NCBI GenBank assembly: GCA_963575745.1
Contig: CAUYUJ010000004.1
Location: 372,001 to 436,000 of the forward strand
Direction: 5' to 3'
DNA length: 64,000 nt
DNA from: Prorocentrum cordatum
Lineage: Eukaryota
Shown: one piece after another, positions 3,711 to 59,693 of the stretch
How positions within the stretch are numbered: the stretch's first letter is position 1
Layout of the letters: each line of letters begins with the position of its first letter
Made by a program: the position numbers and the translations under genes
The notes under the pieces: model-generated
Seen by the model: the letters and a program-made list of their open reading frames with translations, nothing else
Database searches by the model: none
Told to the model about the DNA's origin: nothing

Positions 3711-4020
3711 AAATGTGGCAAATGCCGTATGTTGTTGCACCCTGACCCCGCCGATCTGCGTGACGGGTGCCACAGAATTTCAGAAATGTGGCAAATCCCC
3801 TATGTTTTTGCACCCTGACCCCGCCGATTTGCGTGAGGGGTGCCACCGGATTTCAAAAATGTGGCAAATCCCGTGTATGTTTGGACCCTGACCCTGCAAA
3901 TCCTTTGTGTTTTTGGACCCTGACCCCGCCGATCTGCGTGAGGGGTGCCACCGAATTTCAAACATGTGGCAAATCCCATGTGTTTTTGGACCCTGATCCC
4001 GCCGTTTTGCGTGAGGGGTG
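3711..4020 (+). repeat. 73-bp satellite, continuation of 597-1135
   Basis: Same unit, resuming in register after the insertion. Confidence 0.85.
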
Positions 4021-4125
4021 TGAAGTTTTATCCACCCCAGAGCACACGTTCAGGGTGTGGTAAACATGCCTGTTTTGGGCCTCCCCCCCTCTCGCGGTCC
4101 ATTAAGAAGGAACAATAAGCAGCAA

Positions 4126-9141: not shown

Positions 9142-9264
9142 AAAGCATAATTGTAACAAGGAACAGTCAGCAGCAAACATGATGGACCCACGAACCCGGA
9201 AAGGGATATAGACATGTGGAGCATGGACACGTTTTCATGATACCCAACTGGGCAACACCTCACG

Positions 9265-9364
9265 NNNNNNNNNNNNNNNNNNNNNNNNNNNNNNNNNNNN
9301 NNNNNNNNNNNNNNNNNNNNNNNNNNNNNNNNNNNNNNNNNNNNNNNNNNNNNNNNNNNNNNNN
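9265..9364. other. Assembly gap (100 N)
   Basis: Run of N; continuity across it is unproven. Confidence 0.99.
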
Positions 9365-10412
9365 TGTGTTCCCGTGCTGGGGGTGTCCGTGCTGGGCCGT
9401 GGTCGTGCTGGGCGTGGTCGTGTGCTGTGCGTGGTCGTGCATGGGGGGGTCGGCTGGGTTGGTCGTCTGGGGTTGTCGTGCTGGGGTGTGGTCTTGCTGG
9501 GGTAGGGTCGTGCTGGGGTCGGGTCGTGCTGGGGTGTGGTCGTGCTGGGGTATGGTCGTGCTGTGTGGGGTCGTGCTGGGGTGGGGTCGTGCTGGGGTCT
9601 GGTCGTGCTGGGGTGTGGTCGTGCTGGGGTATGGTCGTGCTAGGGTGGGGTCGTGCATTTCGCTCGAGACATCTGCCAAAATTCCAGGAAATCGTACAAA
9701 AACAAACGAATTAGTCGAGACATCATCGAAATTCCTTCGCGCGGGGCGCTTTTCCGCGTCGCGGTCGGCTCTGCAAAACAAGCGTTTCGCTCGAGACATC
9801 CTCGGCAAACTCTGCGGAGCAAGCGTTTCGCTCGAGACATCCTCAACACACGAAAAAGTGGCCCGCACCCTGTGATTTATCGATCGGGATTTCAAAAACA
9901 AGCGTTTCGCTCGAGACATCCTCAAATTTTAATTCGCCGGCCTCCTTCGACCTCGTTATTTATCAGGGAAAAAATTCGCCGGCCTCCCTCAAGCAGGCAC
10001 CGGGGGACAGGTTTACCTACTAAAAGAGAACCCTGGGCCAAAGCCCTTTCCGGGAAAACAAAGGAATTAGTCGAGACATCATCGAAATTCCTTCGCGCGG
10101 GGCGCTTTTCCGCGTCGCGGTCGGCTCTGCAAAACAAGCGTTTCGCTCGAGACATCCTCGGCAAACTCTGCGGAGCAAGCGTTTCGCTCGAGACATCCTC
10201 AACTCTGCAAAACCAGCGTTTCGCTCGAGACATCCTCAACAAATTCTGAAAAAACAAGCGTTTCGCTCGAGACATCCTCAAATTTTAATTCGCCGGCCTC
10301 CTTCGACCTCGTTATTTATCAGGGAAAAAATTCGCCGGCCTCCCTCAAGCAGGCACCGGGGGACAGGTTTACCTACTAAAAGAGAACCCTGGGCCAAAGC
10401 CCTTTCCGGGAA
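9365..10412. mobile_element. Right portions of two nested subfamily II elements
   Basis: 15-bp GTGGTCGTGCTGGGG minisatellite (9365-9655), then two right ends (..TTTCCGGGAA at 10056 and 10412). A subfamily II left end lies at 9178, before the gap. Confidence 0.7.
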
Positions 10413-11890
10413 AAGACTACCATACAGCTCAACAAGTTCGTGGAATACGACATGACATGCTTGGTTTTACCGATCAATGTATTGAGCGCTGCCTGGAGTG
10501 CGCCTCCAAGCGTACCCAGGGGGCAGGGTCACGTCGTAAACGGTCCGACTCACCGAGGGCTTCGCGATCCAAATCGCCTAGCTCCTCCGGGTCGGTCGTG
10601 AGACCCACTAGTGCGCTCAACGCACGGTCACGATCATCCAGCCCAGCTGGATCGGTCGACAAACCTTCCACTACGACACAATCAACGACAGTCACATACG
10701 ATGACCTACCCGACGCCGAGACTCCTGGCATCGAGGACACCTCCTTTACCGAGTCCGATTATTCCGACGAGGGTATCCTCGGCCAGGACGCGGCGAGTGT
10801 ATTGATGAAGATTCTCTACCTGGCACGCCGTTGTCGTTTCGATCTTTTACATCCAGTATGTATGCTAGCCAGAGGATGACCAAATGGAATACCACGTGTG
10901 ATAAACGCCTCCATCGGCTGATATGATACATCAAAACGACGCGTACCCATTGTTTACATGGATGGATCGGCGATTCTTCTGACAAGCTATCCATCATGCT
11001 CTTCACTGACGCCTCGTTCGCCGATTGCATTACCTCCTCCAAGTCCACTACCGGCGTCTTCGCGGCGCTTGTTGGACCCAACGCGTTCTTCCCGGTCAAC
11101 GCCGTGTGCAAGAAACAAACGGTCGTATCGCACTCGTCCACAGAGTCCGAGATCGTTGCCCTTGACTCGGCACTACGACTGGAGGGACTACCACTACTCT
11201 CATTCTGGGAGGCCGTGGTGGAGGTTGCCAAGACCTGCAAAGAGAAGAATACTTGCCTGGGTTGCCTGGGACGCGCCGCCACGGCGATATGTCCAACATT
11301 GGCCGCCAAAAAGAAGAGGCGTAAGCCATCGCCTCGCAAGGCATCCCCCACACGGGGATCTTCTCCTAGCCGTAGGCAGCTACCGCTAAAGACGGAGCTA
11401 CCTGTGCCACCAAAGAGGCGCACGATATCCCATGAGGGTACCGTGTTACACGTGGAGCAAGAGCCCGCTCAGGAGAGCAGCTCTCCCAAAGTGTATCTCA
11501 TCGTCCTCGAGGATAACCAAGCCGTGATCAATATTGCCCAAAGTGACGTACACCCGCACTTCGTCATCTTCATCGTACTCATCGTATAAACTTGGATTGG
11601 ATATGTGAGACATGCCAATTTGAACATATTGAGCTCAAGTATGTAGGTACAAAAGAGCAACTTGCAGATATGATGATTAAACATGTTGAGCCGAAGAAAG
11701 CAGACCTCTGGAGGGATCTATTGGAGCACTCGCTCATATTTCCTGTTACCCCGTTACAGTGCGCTCCAAAGGATCCGAGGAGACCACTACGAGGGCCTCA
11801 GAGGCCCGATGGTATACCTCATATCGCAGAACCTCCAAAACTGGATGGATGTCCGGAGATATGTAAAATATTACTCACCGACAAAGAAAA
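10413..11890 (+). pseudogene. Ty1/copia pol remnant: RT C-terminus plus RNase H
   Basis: Motifs LMKILYLARRCRFDLLHPV, TKW..CDKRLHRLI*YI, FTDASFA..SKSTTG, KKQTVVSHSSTESEIVA, EDNQAVI, RHLHRTHRINLDWI and YVGTKEQLADMMIK. Frameshifts at ~10875 and ~11545; in-frame TGA at 10924. Confidence 0.92.
11859..11890 (+). repeat. 32-bp direct duplication, left copy (ATATGTAAAATATTACTCACCGACAAAGAAAA)
   Basis: Identical to 18886-18917. Confidence 0.95.
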
Positions 11891-13997
11891 CAGGATCGAC
11901 CCACGAACCTGGAAAGGAATATAGAAATGTAAGACATGGCAACGTTTCAAAGACACCTGATTGGGCGACGGGCAAATGCAATGCTTAGTGTATCGACCTT
12001 GATGTACCGTGCCGAGGGCTGTGCTGCGCTGTGCCGTGTTGTGGATCGAGTCCTCCCCTGCATCCGAGTCCTGACCGAACTGATCTGGATCTTAAGCTCG
12101 AGCTGCCTAAGCACATAACTAGTAGCTGCCCCAGAGTTGATTGACAAGGGAACATGCCAGGAGGACGCGCCGCAGAACGTCCCAAGGGACGCGCCAGGCG
12201 ACGTGCCAGGGGACGCGCCATGGGGTCGCACCGCGGGACGTGCCAAGGGGACGCGCTACGGAATGCGCCAATGGACGTGCCAGGGGACGTGCCAAGGGAC
12301 GCACCAAGCGAGGTGTCAGGGGACGTGCCACGGGGACGCACCGCGGGACGTGCCAAAGGGACGCGCTACGGAACGTGCCAATGGACGTGCCACGGGACAT
12401 GCCAGGGGACGCGCCGCGCGACGTGCCAGGGGGACTCGCCACAGGACGCGCCACGGAACGTGCCAAAGAACGTGCTAAGTTGCAATGCTGAATGAGTGTA
12501 TCGATCTTGATGTACCGTGCCGCGGGCTGTGCTGTGCTGCGCCGTGCTGAACTCCGATGTGCCACGTGATTGTGCTCTACCGCCGTGTGGATCGAGTCCT
12601 CCCCACGCATCCGAGTCCTGACCGAACTGATCTGGATCTTAAGCTCGAGCTGCCTGAGCACATAGTAGCTGCCCCAGAGCTAATTCACGGGAGCATGCTA
12701 GGAAGACGCGCCGCCGAAAGTTCCAAGGGGCGCGCCAGGCGACGTGCCAGGGGGCGCGCCATGGGGGCGCACCGCGGGACGTGCCAAGGGGACGCGCTAC
12801 TGAACGTGCCAATGCATTATGGACGTGCCACGGGACGTGCCAGGGGACGCGCCGCGCGACGTGCCAGGGGGACTCGCCGCAGAACGCGCCACGGAACGTG
12901 ACAAAGAACGTGCCAAGTTGCAATGCTGAGTGAGTGTACCGATCTTGATGTAATGTGCCGAGGGCTGTGCTGTGCTGCGCCGTGCTGAACTGCGATGTGC
13001 CATGCCGCGATTGTGCTCTACCGCGTTGTGGATCAAGTCCTCCGTTGCATCCGAGTCCTGACCGAACTGTTCTGGATCTTAAGCTCGAGCTGCCTGCGCA
13101 CATAGTCCACGAGGTAGCTGCCGCAGAGCTAATTGACAAGGAATTATGCCAGGAAGACGCGCCGCGGAACGTTCCAAGGGACGCGCCAGGCGACGTGCCA
13201 GGGGACGTGCCACGGGGACGCACCGCGAGACGTGCCAAGGGGACGCGCTACTGAACGTGCTGGGGACAAGCGTCGTGTTGGCGGCCTGGACACGTAAAAA
13301 CACAATGCCAGCTCGGGACAACCATGAGAGACCCCCTGGGTGGCCTGGACACGTAAAACACGTGGTTCCAGCTCGGGACAATCATGTTAGAGATCTCCCT
13401 GGGTGGCCTGAGCATGAAAGAACACGTGGTTCCAGCTCGGGACAGCCATGTTAGATACCCCTCTGCGTGACTTGGATACGCTGATTTCGCGCCCCCGCTC
13501 GAGACACCCTCGCGACGCCTTCCCTGGAGAGGCTCCCAAAGCGCACCCCCCTGTTCAGAGCAAGAAGCCATCACTTTTCCTCATAATTCGGCGTTGGGCC
13601 CGACGCCATGTTAGATGCCCCAACTCTGCAAAACCAGCGTTTCGCTCGAGACATCCTCAACAAATTCTGAAAAGCAAGCGCTTCGCTCGAGACATCCCCC
13701 AACTCTGCAAAACCAGCGTTTCGCTCGAGACATCCCCAACAAGTTATGAAACATGATGGACCCACGAACCCGGAAAGGGATATAGACATGTGGAGCATGG
13801 GCACGTTTTCACGATACCCAACGGGGCAACACCTCACGAAACATCCCACGAGACACCTCACGAAACATCCCACGAGACACCTCACGAAACATTCCGCGAG
13901 ACACCTCACGAAACATTCCAGGAGACACCCCGCGAAACATTCCACGAGACACCCCACGAAACATTCCACGACGACAGGCAACCACTCAACCAAGGCG

Positions 13998-15262
13998 GTG
14001 TGGTCGTGCTGGGGAGTGGTCGTGCTGGGGTGTGGTCGTGCTGGGGGGTGGTCGTGCTGGGGTGTGGTCGTGCTGGGGGGGTGGTCGTGCTGGGGGGTGG
14101 TTGTGCTGGGGCGTGGTCGTGCTGGGGCGTGGTCGTGCTGGGGCGTGGTCGTGCTGGGGTGTGGTCGTGCTGTGGTGAGGTCGTGCTGGGGTGTGGTCGT
14201 GCTGGGGTGTGGTCTTGCTGGGGTAGGGTCGTGCTGGGGTCGGGTCGTGCTGGGGTGTGGTCGTGCTGGGGTGTGGTCGTGCTGGGGTGGGGTCGTGCTG
14301 GGGTGGGGTCGTGCTGGGGTCTGGTCGTGCTGGGGTGTGTTCGTGCCGTGCTGGGTGGGGTCGTGCTGGGGGTGGTCGTGCTGGGGGTGGTCCGGTGGGG
14401 GTGGTCGTGCTGGGGCGTGGTCGTGCTGGGGGTGGTCGTGCTGGGGGGTGCGTGGCTGGGGGGTGTCGTGCTGGGGTGGTCGTGCTGGGGCGTGGTCGTG
14501 CTGGGGCGTGGTCGTGCTGGGGTGTGGTCGTGCTGTGGTGAGGTCGTGCTGGGTGTGTGGTCGTGCTGGGGTGTGGTCGTGCTGGGGTGGGGTCGTGCTG
14601 GGGTGGGGTCGTGCTGGGGTGTGGTCGTTCTGGGGTGTGATCGTGCTGGGGTGTGGTCGTGCTAGGGTGGGGTCGTGCTGGGGTGGGGTCGTGCTGGGGT
14701 GTGGTCGTGCTGGGGAGTGGTCGTGCTGGGTGTGGTCGTGCTGGGGTGTGGTCTTGCTGGGGTGGGGCCGTGCTGGTGTGGCGTTGCTGGGTGTGGTCGT
14801 GCTGGGTGCTCGCACCCTGTGAATTTATCGATCGGTCGTGCTTGGTGTGTCGTGCTGGGGTGTGGTCGGTGCTGGGTTTGGTGGTCGTGCTGGGGTGTGG
14901 TTCGTGCTGGGGTGTGGTCGTGCTGGGAGATGGTCGTGCTGGGTGGGTCGTGCAGGGCGTGGTCGTGCTGGGGGTGGTCGTGCTGGGGGTGTGTCCGTGC
15001 TGGGGGGTGGTTCGTGCTGGGGCGTGGTCCGTGCTGGGCGTGGTCGTGCTGGGGCGTGGTCGTGCTGGGGTGTGGTTCGTGCTGTGGTGAGGTCGTGCTG
15101 GGGTGTGGTCGTGCTGGGGTGTGGTCTTGCTGGGGTAGGGTCGTGCTGGGGTCGGGTCGTGCTGGGGTGTGGTCGTGCTGGGGTATGGTCGTGCTGGGGT
15201 GGGGTCGTGCTGGGGTGGGGTCGTGCTGGGGTCTGGTCGTGCTGGGTTGTGGTCGTGCTGGG
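13998..15262 (+). repeat. G-rich 15-bp minisatellite (GTGGTCGTGCTGGGG)n; also 15840-16536 and 17027-17757
   Basis: Tandem units. Each array follows a 12-bp CACGAAACATYC/CACGAGACACCY array. Confidence 0.95.
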
Positions 15263-15263
15263 G

Positions 15264-15301
<38 letters not shown>

Positions 15302-15579
15302 ATGGTCCGTGCTAGGTGGGTCGTGCAGTTCGCATCGAGACATCCTGCCTAAATTTCCAGTAAAATCGTGCAAAAACAAAGGAATTAGTCGAGACATCAA
15401 CGAAATTCCTTCGCGCGGGGCGCTTTTCCGCGTCGCGGTCGGCTCTGCAAAACAAGCGTTTCGCTCGAGACATCCTCGGCAAACTCTGCGGAGCAAGCGT
15501 TTCGCTCGAGACATCCTCAACACACGAAAAAGTGGCCCGCACCCTGTGATTTATCGATCGGGATTTCAAAACCAAAAAA

Positions 15580-18318
15580 CATGATGGACCCACGAACCCG
15601 GAAAGGGATATAGACATGTGCAGCATGGTCACGTTTTCACGATATCCAACTGGGCGACACCTCACGAAACATCCCACGAGACACCCCGCGAAACATCCCA
15701 GGAGACACCTCACGAAACACCCCACGAGACACCTCACGAAACATTCCACGAGACACCCCGTGAAACATTCCACGAGACACCCCACGAACAGGCAACCACT
15801 CAACCAGACACCCCACGACACATTCCACGGGGGTGCGACTGGGTGTGGTCGTGCTCGGGGTGTGGTCGTGCTGGGGGGGGTGGTCTGGCAGGGGTGGGTC
15901 GTGCTGGGGGGGTGGTCGTGCTGGGGGGTGGTTGTGCTGGGGCGTGTCGTGCTGGGGCTGGTCGTGCTGGGGCGTGTCGTGCAGGGTTGTGGTCTTGCTG
16001 TGGTGAGGTCGGTGCTGGGTGTGTCGGCTGGGGTGTGGTCTTGCCTAGGTGGGGTCCGTGCTGGGTGGGGTCGTGCGGTGTGGGGTCTGCTGGGGTGTGG
16101 TCGTGCTGGGGTGTGGTCGTGCTGGGGTGTGGTCGTGCCTGGGGTGTGGTTCCCCCCCCCCCCCCCGTGCTGGGGAGTGGTCGTGCTGGGGTGTGGTCGT
16201 GCTGGGGCGTGGTCGTGCTGGGGGGTGGTCGTGCTGGGGGTGTGGTCGTGCTGGGAGGTGGTCGTGCTGGGGCGTGGTCGTGCTGGGGCGTGGTCGTGCT
16301 GGGGCGTGGTCGTGCTGGGGTGGGGTCGTGCTGGGGTGGTCGTGCTGGGGTGTGGTCGTGCTGGGGTGTGGTCTTGCTGGGGTAGGGTCGTGCTGGGGTC
16401 GGGTCGTGCTGGGGTGTGGTCGTGCTGGGGTATGGTCGTGCTGGGGTGGGGTCGTGCTGGGGTGGGGTCGTGCTGGGGTCTGGTCGTGCTGGGGTGTGGT
16501 CGTGCTGGGGTATGGTCGTGCTAGGGTGGGGTCGTGCATTTCGCTCGAGACATCCTGCCAAAATTCCAGGAAATCGTACAAAAACAAACGAATTAGTCGA
16601 GACATCATCGAAATTCCTTCGCGCGGGGCGCTTTTCCGCGTCGCGGTCGGCTCTGCAAAACAAGCGTTTCGCTCGAGACATCCTCGGCAAACTCTGCGGA
16701 GCAAGCGTTTCGCTCGAGACATCCTCAACACACGAAAAAGTGGCCCGCACCCTGTGATTTATCGATCGGGATTTCAAAAACATGATGGACCCACGAACCC
16801 GGAAAGGGATATAGACATGTGGAGCATGGACACGTTTTCACGATACCCAACTGGGCAACACCTCACGAAACATCCCACGAGACACTTCACGAAACATCCC
16901 ACGAGACACCTCACGAAACATTCCACGAGACACCTCACGAAACATTCCACGAGACACCCCGCGAAACATTCCACGAGACACCCCACGAAACATTCCACGA
17001 CGACAGGCAACCACTCAACCAAGGCGGTGTGGTCGTGCTGGGGAGTGGTCGTGCTGGGGTGTGGTCGTGCTGGGGGGTGGTCGTGCTGGGGGGTGGTCGT
17101 GCTGGGGGGGTGGTCGTGCTGGGGGGTGGTCGTGCTGGGGCGTGGTCGTGCTGGGGCGTGGTCGTGCTGGGGCGTGGTCGGTGGGGCGTGGTCGTGCTGT
17201 GGTGAGGTCGTGCTGGGGTGTGGTCGTGCTGGGGTGTGGTCTTGCTGGGGTGGGGTCGTGCTGGGGTGGGGTCCTGCTGGGGTGTGGTCGTGCTGGGGTG
17301 TGGTCGTGCTGGGGTGGGGTCGTGCTTGGGGTGGGGTCGTGCTGGGGTGTGGTCGTGCTGGGGTGTGGTCGTGCTGGGGTGTGGTCGTGCTGGGGAGTGG
17401 TCGTGCTGGGGTGTGGTCGTGCTGGGGGGTGGTCGTGCTGGGGGGTGGTCGTGCTGGGGGGGTGGTCGTGCTGGGGGTGGTCGTGCTGGGGCGTGGTCGT
17501 GCTGGGGCGTGGTCGTGCTGGGGCGTGGTCGTGCTGGGGTGTGGTCGTGCTGTGGTGAGGTCGTGCTGGGGTGTGGTCGTGCTGGGGTGTGGTCTTGCTG
17601 GGGTAGGGTCGTGCTGGGGTCGGGTCGTGCTGGGGTGTGGTCGTGCTGGGGTATGGTCGTGCTGGGGTGGGGTCGTGCTGGGGTGGGGTCGTGCTGGGGT
17701 CTGGTCGTGCTGGGGTGTGGTCGTGCTGGGGTATGGTCGTGCTAGGGTGGGGTCGTGCATTTCGCTCGAGACATCCTGCCAAAATTCCAGGAAATCGTAC
17801 AAAAACAAACGAATTAGTCGAGACATCATCGAAATTCCTTCGCGCGGGGCGCTTTTCCGCGTCGCGGTCGGCTCTGCAAAACAAGCGTTTCGCTCGAGAC
17901 ATCCTCGGCAAACTCTGCGGAGCAAGCGTTTCGCTCGAGACATCCTCAACACACGAAAAAGTGGCCCGCACCCTGTGATTTATCGATCGGGATTTCAAAA
18001 ACAAGCGTTTCGCTCGAGACATCCTCAAATTTTAATTCGCCGGCCTCCTTCGACCTCGATATTTATCAGGGAAAAAATTCGCCGGCCTCCTTCAAGTTGG
18101 CACCGGGGGATTAGGTTTACCAACTAAAAGAGAACCCTGGGCCGGCGCCCTTTCCGGGAACAAGCGTTTCGCTCGAGACATCCTCAAATTTTAATTCGCC
18201 GGCCTCCTTCGACCTCGTTATTTATCAGGGAAAAAATTCGCCGGCCTCCCTCAAGTTGGCACCGGGGGACAGGTTTACCAACTAAAAGAGAACCCTGGGC
18301 CGGCGCCCTTTCCGGGAA
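15580..18318. mobile_element. Subfamily II element, nesting level 3
   Basis: Inserted after GGGATTTCAAAACCAAAAAA; the host resumes with CAAGCGTTTCG at 18319. Confidence 0.75.
16781..18160. mobile_element. Subfamily II element, innermost uninterrupted copy (1380 bp)
   Basis: Flanks GGGATTTCAAAAA + CAAGCGTTTCG rebuild the empty site seen at ~9886-9910 and ~17989-18012. 11-bp inverted repeat CCCGGAAAGGG / CCCTTTCCGGG. Confidence 0.85.
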
Positions 18319-18885
18319 CAAGCGTTTCGCTCGAGACTTCCTCAAATTTTAATTCGCCGGCCTCCTTCGACCTCGTTATTTATCAGGGAAAAAATTCGCC
18401 GGCCTCCCTCAAGCAGGCACCGGGGGATTAGGTTTACCAACTAAAAGAGAACCCTGGGCCGGCGCCCTTTCCGGGAAAAAAACAAGCGTTTCGCTCGAGA
18501 CATCCTGTCAAAATCCTAAGAAATCTAAATTCCTGCGCGCGGGGCGCAGCACGCGCGAGACATCCTCATAATTCCTGCGCGAGGGGCGCTTTTCCGCGTC
18601 GCGGTCGGCTCGGCAAAACCAGCGTTTCGCTCGAGACATCCTCAACAAACTCTGAGACCAAGCGTTTCGCTCGAGACGTCCCCAACACTGCAAAAACCAG
18701 CATTTCGCTCGAGACATCCTCAACACATTCTGAAAAACAAGCGTTTCGCTAGGGACATCCTCAAAAATAATTCCGCCGGCCCTCTTCCCGCACGTAATTT
18801 ACCGCAGAATAATTTCGCCGGCCCTCTTCCCGTCGAAACCGGGGGGTAAACAAACTAGAAGAGAACCCTGGGCTCGAGCCCGTTC

Positions 18886-21800
18886 ATATGTAAAATATTA
18901 CTCACCGACAAAGAAAAATGGGGCGAGGTAGGATCAGAATGCGGATTCCTGTGTGTTGGACAAGCCAATCACGAGGGCGTATGTGCATGCATGTACCATA
19001 TCGGTGTTCCTGCTGCGGCTACCGATTCGCGCACACCTCGATCGAGGGCACGTTCACCGCACGGTAGACACCACCGTCATCCTCCCTCACCACCGCATGA
19101 TACAGAGAGGTCTAGGACACTTATCATCCGGTTCCGCCGCAGCTGTTTTACCACTCGAGCGGCGAAGCTCACCAGCATCTTCTTGCTCGCTGTGTGCGAG
19201 ACGCAATCAAGTGAGATCGGTTCTAACCCCGATCCCCCCATCCTCGAGATGGACCAGGCATCGCCGCTCCACCTTGACGGTTGGGCCATCGCCTACGACG
19301 CCACTTACGACCCGAACGCCAAGGACGACGACCGCGTGGGCTTCACGTACCACGCTCAGACGGGTCGTCCTCGCGGTCCCGAGGATGGCTTCACTTACGT
19401 ACATCATCTGCGCTTTGATCGAAGTGCAGAGTATGATCTACGTGTGCCCGACGAATCCACCATTGTCGAGGTTACCCGCTCCGCGTCCGCCGACGTGACG
19501 AGTTGGATCGGCAAAGTTGATGGAGGAGTCGGCGGCGACGCCAGCTACGAGTACAGTGCGACTACGGCCACGCCGTGGATGCCATTCATGAAAGCCATGT
19601 GCATGATCTCCAGCCTCTTCACGCGTAATTCTTCTGTACAAGAAAACGTTCATGGCTTACATGGTCACTTGCATGCTGTGATTCCAAACTCACACCGCAA
19701 GTGTCCACCAATGGAGCTTACGACGGTGGTATTAAAGGCGGAGTGGATGATGATGCACAACGATTGGTCAAAAGTGGGCAGTGCATTTCTTGGGCAATAT
19801 GCTGAGGACAGCGTTCAGGATACAAACTACGTGTACAAAGATGGGCTTTGTGCGCCTCACGATGTGTACAGTAATGGATTGACGACTCCCAGCTACGCAC
19901 CAAAACTTGATCGCGCTGCGATCAAACTACCCGCGCGCCCACCTGGCATGGCCAGGACATCGGATACTGCGGGACACCTCGACCACGTTGTCGAGGATAA
20001 CCTCGTCACCGACGTGAGGGCGTTTTCCGATATACACCAGACAAACACATTCCGCCGCAAGCTCAGTACGTGGTTGACCGCACGCGGAGGATTTGGAGGC
20101 ATCGGATCAGGCCCCAAGACGGTGGCAACACCATCCGATCACCTAGACCGCTGGACAATCCTCCCAGAGCATGACGAGAATCATTGGCAGCCATACGAGG
20201 AGGGCTTTGTGCTCCCCGGAGAAACGCCTACCAAGGAGGACCCTTGTCTTATTCCTGGTGCTGCTGTTGATCCGCTAGAGCTCGCACAATCAAAATGCAG
20301 CGCGTTTTGCGGTGGTCGATTGGTTTCTACCCTTCTTTCAGACAACGGGTGGCTTGCACTCGTACAGGAGGACCTGGGACTCCTTCTTCACCATGCCTTT
20401 GGACCGTCAGGTCACGCATACAAATGGACAAACCTGCGCACGGACTCCACGTGGATCATGCATCCCAGGAAAGGGTCCAAGACCGCCGCGCATGAGAAGT
20501 ACCCCAGCCACGGCGTCGACGAGCTCAACAGCTCACAGAAGCGAGATGCTCTTGCTAAGGCATCAAATGTTGGCCTCGTACCTCTATTTTTGCCGTGCCT
20601 CAACCGTGCAGAATGCATCGGCGGCGCCACCCTCGAGCATTTGTCGACCGTCATCCGCGACAACATTATGATGTGGGCATTCTCTTTTGGCAATTACAAA
20701 GAATGGTTCAAACAGAACGACGCGGCGATTGGCCAGGACTGCATTCTATTGCCAGGGGCTGGTGGCGACACCCGCTGTGGTATGGCACAGCTCCGTGAGC
20801 AGCGTACGCAGGCACAGGAGAACCGTATCGCAGCTATCCTCGCAAACCAGTCTGAGTCAACACTCGAGCAGCGCAACATGATCCTCATGATCCGCAAGGC
20901 CAGGGGTTTAACGCTGATGAACGACAATGCTTATATGAAAGAGTGGCGTATATTAAATGAGCTTATATGGGAATATCGGGCTAAAGAATTTCTTGCATTT
21001 GTGAAACAAAGACACTACTGCAGAGGCCTCGACGCCCCTGGTGGCATGGAGCGCAAACGACATTGCGTGTGCTAATCATGGTCAGACCATGTTGGACACA
21101 CGTGGCCATCAGGATCGCGCCCGTACTTCCGTGCGCGAGCTCATCAAGATGGAACGCCAGGGTGGCGTCCCGACGCTTATGCCAGTACATGTGCAAGTGG
21201 ATTTGTCACGCTTTATTGGCGTGATGCCGTACTTTCGTTGCCCCACCGTCATGGGGCCAGGCAAAGCGGCACAATGGGGCGTACACCCAAATTTCGACTA
21301 CCACACGGGCGACCTGATCAAGACGATGCAATCGCGTGGTGTCACAGTTCTTCCCTCAGACCACTGGATTGATGCGTGCGACAGAGTCGCGCCTCAGGCT
21401 TGGCATTCAAAACAGAATAATCACAATCTGGCGACGATCCCGACTCAGTTTTGTGATGCAGTATGCTACCGCAATTTCTGTGCATTGATCCAGCCATTAC
21501 CATCGCAGCTTTATCCATTCCGACCTCCTATCCTGATTCCGGTCACGGACACACAGGCCTACACCCAGGCCGCAGAGATTGTGGAGGCTCTTCAAATTCG
21601 TGAGAAGATGACCAACGAGTGGAAGAGGAATCTCAGCCTCACGACGCTGATGACTCAGACTGCAGGAGAAATTGCTCACTGTGCCTGGATGGCATCTCGC
21701 GCCAGCGGTACTTTGCCGAAATCAATGCCGTTGGCAACAAGCGATCCATGCATGACCATCCCTGGACTCGCAAAAGAGCCACCAGCACCAGATCTTAGCG

Positions 21801-24800
21801 ATCCTACAAAGGCTATTCCTGCTAACGATCCATTCGGCCATGCATGCGACGAGTTGTTCAACCATCTTCTCCTTCTGATCAACGACTACCCCGGGGCGTG
21901 GGCATCTTGGGAATCACCTGAAAAGAGAGAGCTCTTTCACCCCAAAATCGTGAAAGAAATTCAGGGTGCACACGCTGTTGCCTGGGTCGTGTACGAGCAG
22001 TTCCTGCACCAGATGACTTGGACGGCGATGGCGAATCGACCAAATCACGCATCATTGCAGAACGCAACAGATTGAACTCTCATCCTATTGGTCCTCGTAT
22101 TGACAACCAAGACACCATTACAGCATGCAAAGGTTTCTTTACACAGAACGCCTTGGATCGGCTTGCATTGGGACTCGAGGCAGACGTTCCATCTACCGTC
22201 TGGCGCGCGGCAGCTGGGACAGATCAGCAGACCGAGGACGGGCAGCCACTGCCGCCAGGCCCACTGCCTGATGCACTGCCGCCAGGCCCGCAGCCGATCC
22301 CACTACCAGAGCCGCTGCCGCCTGGCCCGCTTCCGATTGGCACGCCAGCCGACCCATCGCCACCAGACCCGCTACCGACAGCCGCGTCAGTCCCGATCCC
22401 CGATGACGACACTGACGTGGAGGCGGCGGAGCTGGAGGCAACTCCTGCCGACGACGGACCTTCTCCCGATCAGCAATCGGATACGGTATACATACTGTCG
22501 CGGCAAGACTGTTGCGAGCGTTCCTTACATGAGGACACCAGCCAGATCCCGACATTGGACAATGCGTGCGCTCCTCGTGAGTACAAGCTTCAAGCAGGTC
22601 ACGCGGATGATCATCCATACGTCCCTCCACCGTTGCGGGGCACGTCCGCGACCAATGGCATAGCTTGCTTGCAGGGCGATGAATGGACGAGCCAATTGTC
22701 ATACGACGATTGTGTGATCGCCCATGCGCCTGACATCGTTCAATCTGGTTGCTTCCCAGAGTGGAAGTGGATATCGCTCCCGCCGTGCGACGGGGTGCGC
22801 TACGGACCTGAGCTGATCGAGGAATGGCTTGGCGACCCTGTTTGGATGAGCAAAGACATCACGACGATGCTACGTCATGAGATCCACTACAAAAAGTTCC
22901 ATATTAATCAGCACACTTGGAAGATGCCCAGCAACTGGAAATAATTTCAGGATATGGTCCAGTGGAAGTTTCAAGAGCGCGCACTCCACAATGGACCATC
23001 CACCGAGGCGGCCATGGCACACTTCAAAAAGGACGGTGAGCCAGACGGATATACGGACTGGACTAATTACTACCCGATCTTCGTCATTCGTGCATTCCAG
23101 AAGCACATTGACCCGCAGAAGAACCGGCTCGAGATATATGCCAAACCAGTCCCCGACGCGGGCGATCCCAGCTGCTTCGACTGGAACAGCGTTATCGCTA
23201 TCAAATGCGTCGGAGGTCTCAGTTGCGTCAATCCACTCTCCAAACCGTGGAATATGGGCTGGGAGAGCTTACAATGGACAGACGTGAAGTACCTCCACCA
23301 CGGCACGACACTTCGTGCCTGGCGAAGCATCCTCAAGTCAGGGAGTATTCCAGGCTGTATTGATCCGTCTTCTCAGAGAGACAAACACTTCCGAGGATCA
23401 CCACGCGCGGAGGCATTCTTCAGTTCCAGCACCTACGTAGACAACGCTCAAAAGAATCCTCACATCTCGGTACAATCGTACAAGTTCAAGCACTACAAGA
23501 ACGAGGTAGAGCTGGTAATCAACATGGAGATTGCCACAAAGGCTGGATGCAGATTTTGGCTGGGAGGGAGCACAAGGTGCTACTATGACTGAGGACGTGG
23601 TCCCAGCCGCCGCAGTAATCGCCATTCGCCGTCTCACACCACGCAGTGAGCATGGCAGGCAGATATGGCCAGAGGGCACTACTTGGGTTCACCCGCCACT
23701 GGCTGCGAGACAACCATTGAGCAAATACGAGATTTGCGCTGTTCCTCCTGGGACAGACACAATCGATGACCCTCCTGGGATTGCCCCAACTGGCGTGGCC
23801 TACGACACGGCTCAGCAGACACAGACACAGTCCGCCTCAGCATCATCGGCCCAGCGGCCAATCGCCCCTCAGCTGGGGGCGACCCCCGCTGGCCACACAT
23901 CTGACGCCGACGCTTTAGATGAGACGATGGTCCGTGCTATAGTCAACAGTTGTGGGCACAACACACAGGATAAATAATGGTTGATAGCTATACCACATTG
24001 CAGAGAGGCCCTGCGACCCATCACATCAAATATTACACAGAAAGATTGGGGTCGAAGGCCTATCTTCAATGATGTTTGCATGGGGGACTTCGTTATCGTC
24101 AAAAATTGTGGCTCTACCAATTGCTACCACTATGACAATGACTTCCCCAAGGGCGACTACAATGCGAAGGTGCGCATGAACAAGGGCCATATTTATGGAC
24201 CAATCATCTATGTCGGAGTCTCCGAGAAATTCTTTGCGGTACAAATACCTATTCTCAACTACGGTTTACGATGGGTAAACATATGGTACTGCGACAAAAA
24301 CATGCCCCTCATGGGCGTTGTCTTCGCTTTGCCAGTACGTGCCGGCATCGACTCGAGCCACATGAATGTTGCACTTGAGGGCCCCTCTTCATGCAGCGAC
24401 CAGATCTATAAGTATAAAGAATCACGTGATCTACCATATCTTGGAATGCCGAGCATTTACAAACCACGTATCCCACGTGCGCCGACCAGACGCCCCGCTC
24501 CTCGGACACCCGATCCCGACGAGCTGGTGGCAATACCTGCCGAGGCTCCCACAGCAGACGACGAGGGATCCCGACAAGAGGCAGGCCAATCCAAAGAGCC
24601 TCTGGTAATTGTCATTGTGGATATATCGACTATACCACTCACAGATGAGGAGAAAGCAGCCAATGATACCATGAAGGCGGATTGGTCGGCAGAAATTCAC
24701 GCTGATGAGGACATCGGCTCGAGCATCATTGATCATATTATGGACCCGCCAGAGGATTTCCTCAACCACCCCGACTATGAGCCAGAGGATGGTACAATAT

Positions 24801-26968
24801 GGATCTTGCAATCCTACGACCACCGCATATACCGCTGGACGTCGGAGATGTTGGTGGACTCACCAATGATAAAGGTAAAGCAAATTATTGAAGTACACAC
24901 TGGCAGGACCAACATCGCGGTGGACAAGGTAGAGTCATACTTACGATTTGAGATACAATTTTGACCAAAAACTGACGTATACCAAATGGATTACAATCGT
25001 ACCCACAAATGGGCACGCGACAAACCGATTTGCAGTGCAAATTGTTTCTTTAAAAAGATGGTACACTACCTGGGTCCGGGAGTCATCGAGGAGTCGACCA
25101 CAGGCATCTTCCATTGGAATTCCAAAGTGTACCAAATCATATTGTTGGACAGCATCAAGGAGCTACGTGATTTCACAAATGGTGCTATCTATCAGAACCA
25201 GCCTGCCCTCAATACGTTGCGTGATCTCTTCGCAAATTGCATCCAGACACACGGCAACCCAGGCTTCCCCGCATGGAGGGAGCCGGTGGAGACACCTGCC
25301 GCGCCTGACCAGGACGACCCAGGCGCCGAGCAGGATATCCCCAGGGACCCAGGCAGCGTTGCTTCCGCAGCACCTGACCAAGAAACCATGGTACAGATCA
25401 TAGCCGATAAAAAGAAGATTGACCGCAAGGCGGGCGACAATGAGGCCATCTTGCAGGCAGAGGCTACCCGCATCCGTACGGACAACATACACCATGGTGC
25501 TACTGATATTGCGGACACAGACACCTCCGGGTACGCAGGACTACCGGGGGAAAGACTGTCTAGGATCGAGATCGAGGGGGCCGGCCGATCGATCGCCTCA
25601 CGCCCGACCGCTGAGATCAATCGTTATGCCATGGACCAAGTGGGCCGTGTTCTCGCCAGCGGCCTTGACACCCGCTGGGGATCTCGCGAGCACCTTGCGA
25701 TCTCTGGGGCCCCTGAAGAGATCCAGCATGATATAGCGCGATGTCGGACTTGCGATTGTCTTCTATCTCTCGGAATCGTCACAGGTGACGGTACAATTTG
25801 TGACATCTGCTGGCAGTACACTGTCGCTGTAGGTGCTACCGGCAAAGGTGGCGCCGCCGAGAGCGACCTTGCATACCTCCAGAAGTTGACCCACTGGATC
25901 AAGACGACCCTCTCCCGGGACGACATCACAAGGTATATGACAGATGGAGCGCATGTCCAGATGATGGGCAAGCGCTCCATAGCTGGTCAGGAAAAGGATA
26001 CCTTGAGGAGATTCGCGAAGAAAGCTGCGGAGAGGTATCAGAAGTGGGTCGACGCAGGCTCCCCTCCTGCACACATGTGCAGGCTGATGGGTGAGACTGA
26101 GGACGACAGACCTCTATGCCACCCCTTCGCCAATCTCGTTCAGCGTTTCCTGAGCGATGTGCGGTTCCACCGCCAAATGACAGCCGCTCGCGCTGAGACT
26201 GGCAAAAAGGCCTTCACCGTCGAAGACATGCGTGATGCTCGTGATATTCACGATCACAGCGTCAGGCAGGGCTTTGCTGGTCGGAGGAAGTGGTGGTTGA
26301 ACGCAGGTAGACTCGATAGAGGCACTAGGCAAGAGCGTGGACTTATCACAATTGCCCTTCCCCGCGGGGATGGCACTTGCGAGAAAGTCGCGCAGCGGAA
26401 GCTTGCCGCACTAGCCTCCATCGAACTTGCCGTGGGTTCTGCAAATCAAAGGGGGGTGCGTTCAGGGATTAGAGCCGATCCGATCGATCCTGATACACAC
26501 TCTTCACATTCACATGGCGCCATGGAGCCGCGGCAGCCGCGGCGCCCGCCGCCGCCGCGCCCTGCTCCTGGCGACGCTGCTGGATCCCGCGCCTCTGGCG
26601 CGCAGGATGACACGCCCGCTGGGCCGCGCGGTGCCGCCGCGCAGCGGCAGAGCAGCGATGCCAGCCGCAGACCAACAACGCCCCCTCGTGCCAAGAGGGC
26701 GCGCAGGACAGAGGACTACGCGACGCGGTGGCGCAAGAACCTAGAGGGGAGCCAGTGGGGCCCCAGATGCTGGGGCTACTATGCCAAATGCTGGATATAC
26801 ATCGCGGACAACAATGATGAGTTCGTGTACGTCCGCGACTTGCTGCACAACGATAGGTTTCGCCACTGGGCCCCCAGGGCGCCCTGGGAGACTTTCGCGA
26901 CGAGCTGCGTCGCGGAGGATGGCCGCAGGGCGTGGGGCCAGAGATTCTACGCGAGAGGCAACACGTAG
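18886..26968 (+). pseudogene. ~2,700-codon C-terminal extension of the copia pol ORF, decayed
   Basis: Seven abutting + ORFs (18991-21075, 21041-22075, 22018-22944, 22954-23592, 23531-23977, 23981-24964, 24986-26968). They are joined by three in-frame stops (22942, 23975, 24962) and three frameshifts. In frame with RNase H across the duplication. Confidence 0.75.
22846..23640 (+). pseudogene. Tpt1/KptA RNA 2'-phosphotransferase-like domain
   Basis: Motifs in Tpt1 order: SKDITTMLRH, PDGY, KNRLEI, IKCVGGLS (cf. IRAxQGHS), YLHHGTTLRAWRSILKSG, RAEAFFS, LVINMEIATKAGCRFW and GATMTEDVVPAAAV. Confidence 0.72.
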
Positions 26969-27727
26969 TCTAGTCGGCCGCAAGGCCCACCGCTCGATTG
27001 GCATGAACTTCATATTTATGCAAGTTCGCCTCGAGCGGTGAATAACAATATAATCTTAGGCCACTTCACTATTCAAGAAAAGTGGCCATACTTATACATG
27101 TGAAACCCAAGGCAGCCTCCTCAGGGACAACGCCGATGGGGAGTAACAAATTGCAGAATTTGTTTACGCAGCTTTTCGTGTTTGTCAACACGTCTTTACG
27201 CATGGCCATGCACTTTTTGCTGTGAGATTTAGACGTGCTTCTTAACGCGATCGTGTTCATCAACACGACTTCATAATGCGTTTTTTTTTGTTTTTGCATT
27301 ACATTGCGTTGAGAATGATATGATGCCCAGCTCTCGCTGGAGAGCCGGTGGCAACACCTGCCGCGCTCAGGCGCGGCAGCTTTTGATGTTGCTTTAATTT
27401 GATCCGATCCTCTTGCTCCGCCCACCCGTGTCTCATTCTTCTCCGCCCTCGAGTGCCGAAGCGTTTTTTTTGGGGGCGCGCCGAGGGGGCACCAAAGTAT
27501 GCTTGGCGAAGAAACAGGGGCCCTGGGTGTTCCTTCTTACCTTTTCTTGCCTATTCGTGACAGCCTTGTGCTGCGTTTGCTTTTGCACACCGCTGTCGCG
27601 ATTGGGGCGCAGCTTAAGCGATGCAGATTTCAAGCTCAGCTGCCCTGCAGACCCGAGGATTCGAGGAGTAAAAGGGTGACGGGTTCTTTTCTCCTGTTCC
27701 CGAGTCCTGCCCTCGCGGACGGGATTC

Positions 27728-27835
27728 GGGACGGGGGGCGTGAATAGAACCCGTATAATACCCTCATATATACTCCTTATCCTCACCTCTCCAGCGCCTG
27801 GCCGTTTGGGCTCAGCTATTGGACTAGATCGATCA
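27728..27835 (+). mobile_element. Polypurine-tract-like run plus candidate short 3' LTR (TG at 27741)
   Basis: GGGACGGGGGGCG is directly followed by TGAATAG. The end could be ..GATCA (27835) or ..ATCCA (27868). No 5' LTR in the window to confirm it. Confidence 0.45.
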
Positions 27836-27939
27836 GACCTTTGATCGTGCAGGAGGAAAAGATATCCATCTTGCCCTCCTTTCCTCTACCAGCGGATCAG
27901 GGGTTCTGTACCTTTGTGCTCTAACCCCATACACAACGT

Positions 27940-28140
27940 CCGCCCGCCAGCGGGGGAGGGGTCAAAGAGAAGGGGTGCCCCTTCGACTCGGTTGCGACAT
28001 TGCCAAATTTTGCTTTCGCTGACAAGCTTGCGGAGAAGGGCGCAAAGAAAGGGGGCGACGGAGGCGACGGCTGACGGAGACGACGAATCGAACATACAAT
28101 ACCCTCACGCACGCTGACAGAGTTGAACAGTTGGTGGATT
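27940..28140 (+). repeat. Dispersed ~200-bp repeat, homologous to 39570-39750
   Basis: Shared GGG.TCAAAG.GAAGGGG...CCCTTCGACTC and a ..CACGCYGACAG..GGYGGATT end. Confidence 0.6.
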
Positions 28141-29679
28141 CGATCTAATCCTCTTCTTCTACCTGGGAGGAGCGGGAAGCGACGAGGGAAAGGGCGGAGG
28201 AGCACTCTGGCGACATCGGCCATCTGTCCCGCGGGGGGCACCAGAAATGTTGTTTGAATTGAGGCGCGAACGGATGCCGCTGGTGGAACCTCCACACCGG
28301 AAGCCGTTGTTGTGTTTCCTTTTTGTGCTGTCGTCCCCTGCGGAAGCGAGGCTCCGACTTGACGTGTTTTTTATGGCACCTTTCATGTCCAACACACGGT
28401 TCGAAGACTTCATGCCCCCCATCAGCTCCGAAGCCGTTGTTCGAGATCCTTGCTTCTCAAAGTAACCACGGTTTAGCTTCAACTCGGCCGAAGCACTATG
28501 TTGATTCCTGCTTGGAAGTTCTAGTTTCTCACATTCCTTCACACGTCTCCCCGTCCATCCGAAACTTCCTCCTCTTCATCTTCATTTTCCTCCGCAGCCT
28601 CCCTACCGCAGGACCATGGCCAACATGGTCTCTTTCGTTTCCAAGAATTCGGATCAGCGCTGGGGCCAGAAGACCCCGGTGGCAGCCTGGGGGGTGGGTG
28701 TGCATGGACGTCAGGCAGGGAGGCCTGGGGGCGCTCTCTTTTCGGTCAAGGAGGGGGGGAAGGGAGGACGAGGATAGGTTTTCTGAGGTTCTTGCAATTT
28801 GGGGATTTCCCCATTCCCTCAGAGGCTAGTGGGCAGTGGGAATCTCTGGACAGCACGGCTGGCGCACTCGTGGCCGAAAGGTTTTCGAACGTCTTTTTTG
28901 GCACACTGGCGGCCTTGTCAGGCTGGCGCAGGCTGCCCACGCTCGGCCACCGCTCGGCCTGCAGCACCGAAGCTGCACCAACGAGGGTGGTTCTCGGACC
29001 CCCTCGTCGGGCGGGGCCAGGACCAGGATAAATCGATGCAGAGCGTTCTGGAACGCGCACGGCGCGTCCTGGAGCGCTCTGGAACGGCCGCGGCGCCCGA
29101 TGCACCCGAAGATCCCGGCGAACACCTTGCCTCGATCGCGCCTTCCGCGGTCAGGACGCCGTCCATGATGCCCGATGTAAGCGCGTCCTGGTGCGAAAAG
29201 CAACGCGTGCCCACCTGTGCGCACCAGCAATTGCGCGTGCTGCTGAGCCCGATCGCTTGGAGTTCCGCGCCCTGCACCTGCTCCCGCTGCGTGGCCGGCC
29301 GCTGCACACCTGCGCACAGTTCCTGACTTGGCGCCACGCGGCCTGCTGGGCTCCAACCGCATCTCGCGCCGCTCCCGCGGGGCCGCTGCACGCCACGTCG
29401 GCAAGCGCGCCTCAGCCAGAGATACCCGATGTATTCCAGTCTGATTCCGTCACGGTCCTGGCTTCGTCTTGCCTCTGCCTTGTCCGGCGGCCGCCTTCTT
29501 GGCTCCAGGGTGGGGCGCGGACAGCGGCTGAGCAGGGGGCGGTCAAGGGGAGGCCACAGCTGCGGCGCAGTGGGCGGCGCTGGCTGGGCACGGCGCGGCG
29601 GCGAGGGCTGTCGCCGCCCAGTCCCCGTAGGGGGCCGCTCACGCGCCTGCAACTCCTCCGTCCCATCCTCCGTCTTTTC

Positions 29680-29689
29680 CTGCTGCTGC

Positions 29690-29720
<31 letters not shown>

Positions 29721-30284
29721 CCTCCTCCTCCTCCTCATCGAAATGTCCTCTCCTCCTCTCCTCTCCTCCTCCTCCTCCTCCTCCTCCTCCTCCTCCTCTT
29801 CCTCCTCCTCCTCCTCCTCCTCTCCTCCTCCTCCTCCTGCTCCTCCTCTCTCTCCTGCTCTCTCCTGCTCTCTCCTCCTCTCCTCCTCCTCCTCCTCCTC
29901 CTCCTCCTCCTCCTCCTCCTCCTGCTTCTCCTCCTGCTCTTCCTCCTCCCTCCTCCTCCTCCTCCTCTTCCTCCTCCTCCTCCTTCTCTTCTCGTCTCCT
30001 CCTCCCCCTCCTCCTCTCCCCATTCCCCGAACCGTCCCCTCCTCCTCCTCATCCTCCTCCTCCTCCTGCTCCTCATCCTTCTCCTCCTGCTCGTCGTCCT
30101 CCTCCTCCTCCTCCTCCTCCTCCTCCTTGTCTTCCTCCTTCTTCTCCTCCTCGTTCTCCTTCCTCCTCATCATCATCATCAGTAGCAGCAACATCATCAT
30201 CAGCATCAGCAGCATCATCATCATCAGCATCAGCAGCATCATCATCATCATCACCATCATCAGCATCATCGTTATCACCATCAC

Positions 30285-30323
<39 letters not shown>

Positions 30324-30330
30324 GATCATG

Positions 30331-30373
<43 letters not shown>

Positions 30374-30455
30374 CCATCCTCATCCTCATCCTCATCCTCA
30401 TCCTCATCCTCATCCTCATCCTCATCCATTCCCTCCTCCTGCCCCTCCTCTTGCT
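29680..30455. repeat. (CTG)/(CTC)/(ATC) trinucleotide microsatellite block
   Basis: Direct observation. Confidence 0.95.
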
Positions 30456-30754
30456 CCAATAATTGCGGAGGGGCCCGTGTAGAGCTCCAGCCCGCGTTAG
30501 CGAGATGGCATGCTGCAGCCAGAAAGGCACGCTGCAGCCAGGTAATGGCTGGTCACTAAACCCGCCGCTTGCCGATTGACTTGCGTACCTACGTTGTGAC
30601 TGTTCTGTAAAGGCCCCCAGGGGTAGCACGTGTTGCCTTCCCAGACCCCCCTCCGTAACATTAACTTTTGGAAACCGGCCACAAGCGTGAGCCTTTGCAG
30701 CTTCCACAGGACAGTATAAGGAGTAAAGGCATCGACGTGCACGCAGGGCGAGTG

Positions 30755-43906: not shown

Positions 43907-44241
<335 letters not shown>

Positions 44242-44301
44242 AGAAAACAAGTTTCGGCAGCAGAGGCGAGTAGCTTGCCCTTGATATCCTCCTCACCCTC
44301 C

Positions 44302-44323
44302 TCCGCCGCCGTTTTGGCTCAAA
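44302..44323 (+). other. Relict dinoflagellate spliced leader
   Basis: TCCGCCGCCGTTTTGGCTCAAA matches DCCGTAGCCATTTTGGCTCAAG at 18/22, ~90 nt upstream of ATG 44416. Confidence 0.7.
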
Positions 44324-44415
44324 CGTGCTCTCGGCGCGCGTTTCGCGTCGCCAGCGTTCTGCGGACGACGGAGTTCGTCTCGACGACGCGTAGCCTCGAC
44401 CATCCGCTGCGACGG

Positions 44416-59500: not shown

Positions 59501-59693
59501 ATGATGCGAGTAAGCCCAACACGCAACAATGGTTTGCGGCTGGGTGATCAGGGCCATTCGAGAAAATGCGATTTGCATTTGTTGCTGAAGTTTCGACGAT
59601 TAAGCAGAACACATGAACAAATGGCCGCGGAGGATTTTCTGACGATCCTCGGCGGTCTGCGCCCCGTGGAGACCAAGCGGGCCATCGAGAATA

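Follow-up and report, generated by a model that had tools for sequence, protein, structure and literature searches.

In a window of 64,000 nt taken from contig CAUYUJ010000004.1 of an assembly deposited as Prorocentrum cordatum, a run of plus-strand open reading frames (ORFs) was located at 18859-21075, 21005-22075, 21922-22944, 22945-23592, 23519-23977, 23978-24964 and 24965-26968. These apparently form a single ORF of at least about 2,700 codons (18886-26968, approximately 8.1 kb) interrupted by three frameshifts and as many stops. On the evidence of profiles, hhalign, predicted fold and alignments, the stretch at 22846-23635 (+) within this ORF is a divergent and decayed domain resembling the RNA 2'-phosphotransferases Tpt1/KptA.

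The frame opening at 21922 (+) translates as GDPVWMSKDITTMLRHEIHYKKF before a TAA at 22942-22944, and includes MSKDITTMLRH, with the R at 22873-22875 and the H at 22876-22878. Past the TAA the frame is unchanged over 22945-23592, where it reads from PDGY through PRAEAFFSSS and then LVINMEIATKAGCRFWLG. Along the way this plus-strand frame holds QKNRL (in QKNRLEIY), with the K at 23119 and the R at 23125-23127, AIKCVGGLS at 23197-23223, LHHGT (in YLHHGTT) at 23293-23307, and PRAEAFFS, with the R at 23404-23406, followed by LVINMEIATKAGCRFW. The domain is therefore laid out as an enlarged N lobe carrying SK..LRH and K.R, and a lobe for nicotinamide adenine dinucleotide (NAD+) carrying HHGT, R.EAF.S and G..MTE..VP.

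Two breaks interrupt the domain in this copy. The first is the in-frame TAA in the N lobe (22942-22944, +), at which one relative (P0004) has a residue encoded by a sense codon. The second is a frameshift at 23562-23566 (+), identified from mapped contigs and from relatives, where the window has 4 extra bases as compared with other copies; the +1 frame beyond approximately 23562-23566 carries on as AQGATMTEDVVPAAAVIAIRRL to about 23635. The 4 bases are missing at 23562 in four contigs of one public run (X1) and two contigs of another (X2, a marine metagenome), and WLGAQG.IMTE is unbroken in relatives P0005, P0006 and P0026. In this copy, the domain at 22846-23635 (+) is dead. An initial annotation of this DNA had named the R at 22873, the K-N-R at 23119-23127, the LHHGT at 23293 and the R at 23404, as well as the in-frame stop (22942-22944) and the frameshift (approximately 23562-23566), and all of these positions proved accurate.

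Homology to Tpt1/KptA and predicted fold

The read-through sequence, with an X at the stop, matched Pfam PF01885 (PTS_2-RNA) with an E-value of 8e-4 and a score of 19.9 bits, and the ORF alone matched the same model at E 0.047 (14.2 bits). With phmmer, 1.84 billion representative proteins were searched exhaustively and 30 relatives were obtained at E<=1e-3, 16 of them at E<=1e-10, with identities to the window that ranged down to 33-45%. The nearest proteins (five of five) are labelled as belonging to Pyramimonas sp., a green alga, and are 60-92% identical. These labels indicate that the host is probably a prasinophyte green alga and not, as the initial annotation had assumed, a dinoflagellate. 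When members of the family were scanned singly, PF01885 was matched at E<=1 by 8 of 31, the best at E 7.9e-5, and any other Pfam family by at most one of the 31. The NCBIfam Tpt1 equivalog gave a 22-residue match at E 0.099.

Alignment of the family (A1) by hhalign with a reference set of nine bacterial Tpt1 sequences (A3, consisting of E. coli KptA and eight bacterial PF01885 loci) gave a probability of 92.9% and an E-value of 3.8e-7 over 101 columns of the NAD+ lobe, and a trimmed alignment gave 92.1% and 6.3e-7. The aligned span extends from AIRcVGGhS, opposite IRAxQGHS, through to the C-terminal GAIMTE..VP, opposite GVWLT..VPP. The next-best local match placed SKDITTMLRH opposite SKFLSFVLRH, in colinear order, at E 0.17-0.24.

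Several results weigh against this identification. The PF01885 score of the read-through, 19.9 bits, is below the gathering cut-off of 26 bits, and the alignment of the N lobe by itself (E 0.17-0.24) is without significance. A search of PDB sequences with the family profile (hmmsearch) returned nothing at E<=10, and phmmer of the window read-through against PDB sequences gave no relevant match. Apart from P0011, which has 547 amino acids, the relatives (29 of the 30) are fragments 59-189 amino acids long, and the search recovered none that was intact and full-length. For the window read-through AlphaFold gave a poor model, with a predicted local distance difference test (pLDDT) of 54, and in the Foldseek rows for this model Tpt1 leads at E-values of 0.6-10. 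Apart from these points, no canonical Tpt1 was recognised among those relatives whose sequences were inspected, and relatives of the domain were found neither among viral contigs nor in metagenome contigs (alignment A2). A size-restricted search for proteins of more than 377 amino acids carrying the domain found none.

The fold was assessed with an AlphaFold model of residues 1-228 of P0011, built with the family sequences as the sole alignment input (pLDDT 65.3 overall and 57-91 in blocks of the NAD+ lobe, predicted template modelling score 0.63). P0011 lacks the first 60 or so residues of the N lobe, and the fold results concern this relative and not the window sequence. In a Foldseek search of the PDB, all 17 matches of the P0011 model at E<=1e-3 were Tpt1/TRPT1/KptA structures, headed by mouse TRPT1 (7yw2, E 1.2e-5), with other ADP-ribosyltransferases (ARTs) appearing from E 0.087. 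Comparison with 48,161 representative chains using VIA-align 2 also placed mouse TRPT1 first (7yw2_A, Z 11.7, 138 residues aligned, root-mean-square deviation 3.9), the match covering model residues 25-204 and both lobes, followed by TkoKptA (9ld3_A, Z 10.6) and yeast Tpt1 (7yw4_A, Z 9.3). A two-lobe Tpt1 fold, with a winged-helix RNA lobe and an ART-like NAD+ lobe, is thus predicted for P0011, in keeping with the structural match that the initial annotation had proposed as a check; the window's own model is too poor to be judged.

The domain might instead belong to another ART clade, such as the DarT-, scabin- or pierisin-like enzymes, and act on DNA or protein without being a relative of Tpt1. 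The NAD+ lobe does align with scabin (Z 7.3), DarT (Z 7.0), and mosquitocidal toxin and pierisin (Z 6.2-6.3), these being the non-Tpt1 ARTs, none of which exceeded Z 7.3. Tpt1 structures nevertheless score 2 to 4 Z units higher, the 7yw2 match spans both lobes, Foldseek matches at E<=1e-3 are without exception Tpt1, and PF01885 is the only family indicated by the sequence profiles. SK..LRH and K.R are moreover motifs of the Tpt1 RNA lobe (PMC6333775), and membership of another clade is consequently very improbable. The Tpt1/KptA-like identity given in the initial annotation is borne out by the PF01885 match, by the hhalign probability and by the rank of Tpt1 structures in the fold searches; the PTS_2-RNA match that the annotation proposed as a check was obtained for the read-through, though below the 26-bit cut-off. 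The stretch is almost certainly a real, very divergent homologue of Tpt1/KptA.

Candidate active site and retention of the domain

The Arg-His-Arg-Arg tetrad and the two lobes of Tpt1 enzymes have been defined (PMC6333775), and all four candidate residues are present in the window copy, as had been claimed at the outset. Among the relatives that cover each site, both the R and the H of LRH are kept in 6/6, the R of K.R in 7/9, and the R of R.EAF.S, the candidate fourth Arg, in 19/21. The second H of HHGT is kept in 16/20. The fourth Arg falls in a gapped stretch of the hhalign alignment, and its equal spacing, R-x-x-(A/V)-(F/H)-(Y/L)-S, was read by eye.

At two further positions the window copy has lost residues that true Tpt1 also conserves: a K replaces the R of AIRC (23204), which is R in 10 of 11 family members, and an L replaces the H of GGHS, which is H in 5 of 10. 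The window differs from every covering contig at 23128, 23204 and 23345, and from nearly all of them at 23159, the others reading toward the family residue. It follows that this copy decayed after its insertion.

The domain might be only a passenger: part of a Tpt1 gene that was captured from the host or from a foreign source, is decaying fast and contributes nothing to the life cycle of the element. All copies seen are fragments or carry breaks, and the sequence has drifted below the Pfam cut-off; among candidate catalytic residues, the second H of HHGT is replaced by R in 4/20 relatives and the fourth Arg by H or L in 2/21. Against such an origin, relatives at 33-45% identity retain SK..LRH, K.R, GGHS, HHGT, R.EAF.S and G..MTE..VP in order, and the similarity reaches into the flanks on both sides of the domain, upstream in P0017, which matches ..YGPEL..EWLGD.., and downstream at W..PPL, which is conserved just past the domain and is common to P0005, P0011, P0026 and P0034 as W.YPPLE. 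Ordered motifs and conserved flanks in diverged relatives are the pattern expected of long constrained retention within one larger protein, and the passenger explanation is accordingly held to be decidedly improbable. By analogy with known Tpt1 enzymes, the domain probably used NAD+ on a nucleic-acid phosphate in active ancestors. Whether it had a working role in the element is an evenly balanced question.

The long ORF and its probable copia-like setting

The first part of the long broken ORF (18886-22845, +) has no recognisable domain, and changes frame at approximately 21005-21075 and 21922-22075; it includes a proline-rich linker at about 22200-22400. The remainder (23636-26968, +), likewise with no recognisable domain, contains stops at 23975-23977 and 24962-24964 and ends at 26966-26968. 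A simple motif scan over the other ORFs of the element gave a CxxC..CxxC at 25742 as its sole match. No other domain was found in the long ORF by Pfam (run on the ORFs and, with X in place of stops, on 17002-29003 in six frames), NCBIfam, PHROGs or phmmer against the PDB. ORF 18859-21072 had no relatives in the size range of 405-1292 amino acids, and ORF 24965-26965 had none in metagenome contigs.

Public runs were mapped on 18859-26968 at 80% identity or more. From X1, 4256 contig records were mapped, of which 422 were at least 99% identical, 903 were 95-99%, 1610 were 90-95%, and 1321 were below 90%. X2 contributed 598 contig records, and all 30 bins of 18859-26968 were covered. The mapped pieces listed were approximately 170-550 nt in length, and an estimated hundred or so distinct variants were present per position in X1. 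From this number of variants, the 8.1 kb stretch belongs, with a high degree of confidence, to a high-copy dispersed repeat. No further copies of the element occur inside the 64-kb window, and there were no RNA runs among the public runs listed for the stretch.

Upstream of the long ORF, plus-strand ORFs at 10289-10876, 10927-11586 and 11547-11921 contain what appears to be the end of a Ty1/copia-like Pol. From motifs of the kind known in copia Pol, a putative remnant of the region between reverse transcriptase (RT) and RNase H, with AASVLMKILYLARRCRFDLL, was assigned to 10417-10876 (+), its 5' side being cut by satellite DNA, and a putative remnant of a copia-type RNase H, together with the tail of Pol, to 10927-11858 (+), with one frameshift at approximately 11547-11586. 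In these ORFs, ILYLARRCRFDL precedes a chain of six plus-strand motifs: DASFA (11008), KSTTG (11041), KKQ (11110), SSTESE (11134), DNQAVI (11512) and ADMMIK (11664). Their order and spacing are what we take to be those of copia RNase H. Six-frame translation of the window contains this chain (11008-11680) a single time, and it never arose in 100 block shuffles; the motifs had been picked after the sequence was read. We know of no Pfam model of copia RNase H. The Pol-like remnant (10289-11586) also has two long insertions rich in Ser, Arg, Pro and Lys, at about 10470-10640 and 11230-11480; copia Pol proteins are compact at these places.

Between this remnant and the long ORF lies approximately 7 kb of satellite or tandem-repeat DNA (11891-18885). 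At its left edge, a 32-nt stretch (11859-11890, +) is 100% identical to 18886-18917, and both copies of the 32 nt are in codon phase with their ORFs, the left one being in frame with ORF 11547-11921 and reading PEICKILLTDKE. The frame of ADMMIK is open to 11890 and then over 18918-21072, giving about 790 codons without a stop. Four X1 records extend upstream of 18886 with the sequence found at 11836-11858 of the window, with two mismatches. Because X1 copies are contiguous across the 18886 junction, the satellite splits the element in this copy only. Since the frame runs on from ADMMIK without a stop, the Tpt1-like domain most likely lies in an extension of a copia-like Pol.

A number of negative results weigh against a copia assignment. 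Pfam families for RT, integrase, protease, gag and RNase H were absent from 84 ORFs across the window (7 + 77), from the six frames of 17002-29003 and from 87 plus-strand ORFs of 1-12100; as this copy is cut off at about 10417 by the satellite, the absence of gag, protease, integrase and RT concerns this copy and not the family. No pair of long terminal repeats (LTRs) or terminal inverted repeats (TIRs) was found, and the sequence after 26968 has no direct-repeat partner elsewhere in the window. The RNase H reading is without tool support, in that phmmer against the PDB gave nothing relevant and hhalign of the RNase H-like stretch against 30 bacterial RNase HI sequences gave nothing. Since no domain can be recognised in the remainder of the long ORF, the element class is unproven. 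A degenerate motif scan of viral contigs identified 10 loci, none of them retroelement-like in the matched frame, and tblastn of the three Pol-like ORFs gave no match below E 1.7.

The 8.1 kb ORF could therefore be a repeat of another class, such as a transposon of no assigned class, an endogenous viral polyprotein that was amplified or a host gene family that has expanded, that came to lie beside a copia remnant by nested insertion or rearrangement. The want of Pfam retroelement domains in 17002-29003, in the plus-strand ORFs of 1-12100 and in the high-entropy ORFs of the window would fit with this, as would the want of an LTR or TIR pair in a region that is heavily rearranged by satellites, and KptA domains have been described inside the polyproteins of a few RNA viruses (PMC9503650). 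The continuity of the ADMMIK frame, through 11890 and 18918-21072, and the four X1 records that join the two segments argue for a single element, and no RNA-dependent RNA polymerase (RdRp), helicase, protease or capsid was found by Pfam, nor any relative among viral contigs. We consider a repeat of another class to be fairly unlikely. The initial annotation had placed the domain inside a copia polyprotein; the RNase H-like chain, the shared frame and the contiguity of other copies agree in part with this placement; no Pfam retroelement family and no LTR pair was found in the window. From the RNase H-like motifs and the frame continuity, we infer that a copia setting is plausible and indeed probable.

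The satellite is made up of a 16-nt unit, about GGTCGTGCTGGGGTGT, arrayed inside higher-order repeats of approximately 1.2 kb. Copies of the higher-order repeat lie at 15363, 16571 and 17792 and are 98% identical, and 159-nt units are present at 17997-18480. The DNA at 9365-10416 is the same satellite as that at 14989-18885. An assembly gap of 100 N (9265-9364) falls within satellite sequence immediately upstream of the Pol remnant. On the downstream side, approximately 0.9 kb next to the element region (29600-30470) is low-complexity sequence rich in CTC/CTG-type trinucleotides. The segment 34001-38000 is extremely rich in G+C (0.76-0.84 per 2 kb window), and long frames are open there on both strands, in several phases. 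A 938-amino-acid frame at 59418-62231 (-) resembles a PIF1-like helicase (E 0.0066, 16.5 bits, below the cut-off) and may be a gene of Helitron type or Pif1 type. Long protein-like frames belonging to no Pfam family at 54290-56284 (+), 44176-45519 (+) and 45996-47973 (+) may be other unclassified repeats or genes. No ribozymes or RNA families were found at gathering score over the whole window or at E<=1 in 9000-29500, and no tRNA genes were found.

Possible function and relation to known systems

The explanation that we favour, with moderate confidence, is that the stretch is a dead Tpt1-like module in the ORF of a high-copy repeat, which follows a copia-like Pol. The domain would be one module of the very long repeat-encoded ORF (18886-26968), and this ORF would most likely follow on from the point where RNase H closes a Ty1/copia-like Pol, whether by extending its C terminus or as an extra ORF reached by read-through. 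In this copy, RT, integrase, gag and the 5' LTR would have been lost to satellite DNA at approximately 10417, and the 7 kb satellite would have split the element.

Tpt1 enzymes are known to take off an internal 2'-phosphate; a subset of them removes terminal 2' or 3' phosphates (PMC6573784), and Tpt1 enzymes ADP-ribosylate 5'-phosphate ends (PMC6582358, PMC10415124). For the ancestral domain we infer catalytic competence, which could have lain in the NAD+-dependent removal of an internal or terminal 2'-phosphate, or in the ADP-ribosylation of a 5'-phosphate. The primer of Drosophila copia is a 5' tRNAiMet half (PMC10275265), and half-tRNA primer binding sites are found in some plant copia lineages (PMC6317226). 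The primer binding site of the present family lies outside the window. The role favoured here would be to render cleaved or ligated RNA fit for reverse transcription, for example at the 3' end of a half-tRNA primer; alternatively, the domain might clear from template RNA the 2'-phosphate left after plant-type ligation, which would otherwise block reverse transcription, and it might also serve in the capping of ends. Healing of a primer or template as the specific role is speculative, and quite unlikely. In its fullest form the proposal is that a copia-like lineage in prasinophyte algae encodes a Tpt1-type NAD+ enzyme in a giant Pol extension, and that this enzyme strips the cleaved half-tRNA primer or the ligated template RNA of 2'-phosphates, or of phosphates that stem from cyclic ends, so that reverse transcription may proceed; this too we offer as speculation that is distinctly unlikely to hold as worded.

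The domain shares with cellular Tpt1/TRPT1/KptA the colinear motifs SK..LRH, K.R, IR..GGHS, HGT, R..(V/A)(H/F)(L/Y)S and G(V/A).(L/M)T..VP, and the two-lobe fold of these enzymes is its best structural match. It differs from them in having an N lobe that is about 50 residues longer, and an insertion of about 25 residues after the fourth Arg. Cellular Tpt1 is a stand-alone protein of approximately 180-230 amino acids, whereas the window domain is embedded in the multi-thousand-residue ORF of a high-copy repeat. Two kinds of Tpt1/KptA occurrence are known: free-standing proteins with housekeeping or repair duties and, rarely, modules carried by a few viruses.

KptA is present in the polyproteins of Beihai picorna-like virus as well as Botrylloides leachii nidovirus, and as a KptA-Nudix fusion in Bodo saltans virus (PMC9503650). 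By description, these viral modules resemble the one proposed here in that a Tpt1/KptA domain is part of a large polyprotein of a selfish replicator with an RNA genome stage. The viruses are, however, exogenous viruses of animals and kinetoplastids, whereas the window contains a genomic repeat in which no RdRp, helicase or Nudix was detected.

The SIRE-type Ty1/copia elements also have coding sequence beyond the RNase H end of Pol, in the form of an extra ORF described as heterogeneous and of unknown function, and the excerpted text of PMC6317226 mentions no Tpt1 in this connection. The added coding sequence is approximately 8 kb here and apparently in frame with Pol, unlike the SIRE extra ORFs. 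In copia elements primed by half-tRNAs, the cleaved tRNA halves would be a possible substrate for an end-healing enzyme (PMC6317226, PMC10275265), and the putative element could resemble them in this respect.

Orchid Ty3/gypsy elements have gained a functional m6A RNA demethylase domain, and such gains are described as rare (PMC9289625). Both cases would be of an LTR element with an extra RNA-chemistry enzyme domain, which in the present case is putative, but the superfamily, enzyme and host are different, and the orchid domain has been shown to be functional. AACRNL, a selfish gene of teleosts, encodes a diphtheria-toxin-like, protein-modifying ART and is spread by neighbouring hAT elements (PMC12957317). 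There, as here, a domain of the ART superfamily is used by a genomic parasite; AACRNL is neither a Tpt1 nor a retroelement protein, whereas the window has a Tpt1-type domain in a putative retroelement ORF. Full-text searches, supplements excluded, found no literature linking Tpt1/KptA with copia or any other retrotransposon. The novelty lies in the genomic setting, which is new for this known enzyme family, and in the divergent clade, likewise new, that the domain represents.

The finding also draws attention to a coding extension of unusual length (approximately 8 kb), the rest of which resembles nothing recognisable, in a high-copy repeat that is probably algal. LTR retrotransposons seldom carry additional enzyme domains, and a Tpt1 module that works would therefore point to a phosphate-handling step in the replication of the retroelement, one at which a nucleic-acid phosphate must be removed or capped, and the handling of primer and template would become testable. 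If the proposal in its fullest form, of a Pol-encoded enzyme that clears phosphates from primer or template, were to hold, no earlier case of a retroelement encoding an enzyme for RNA end-healing or ADP-ribosylation would be known.

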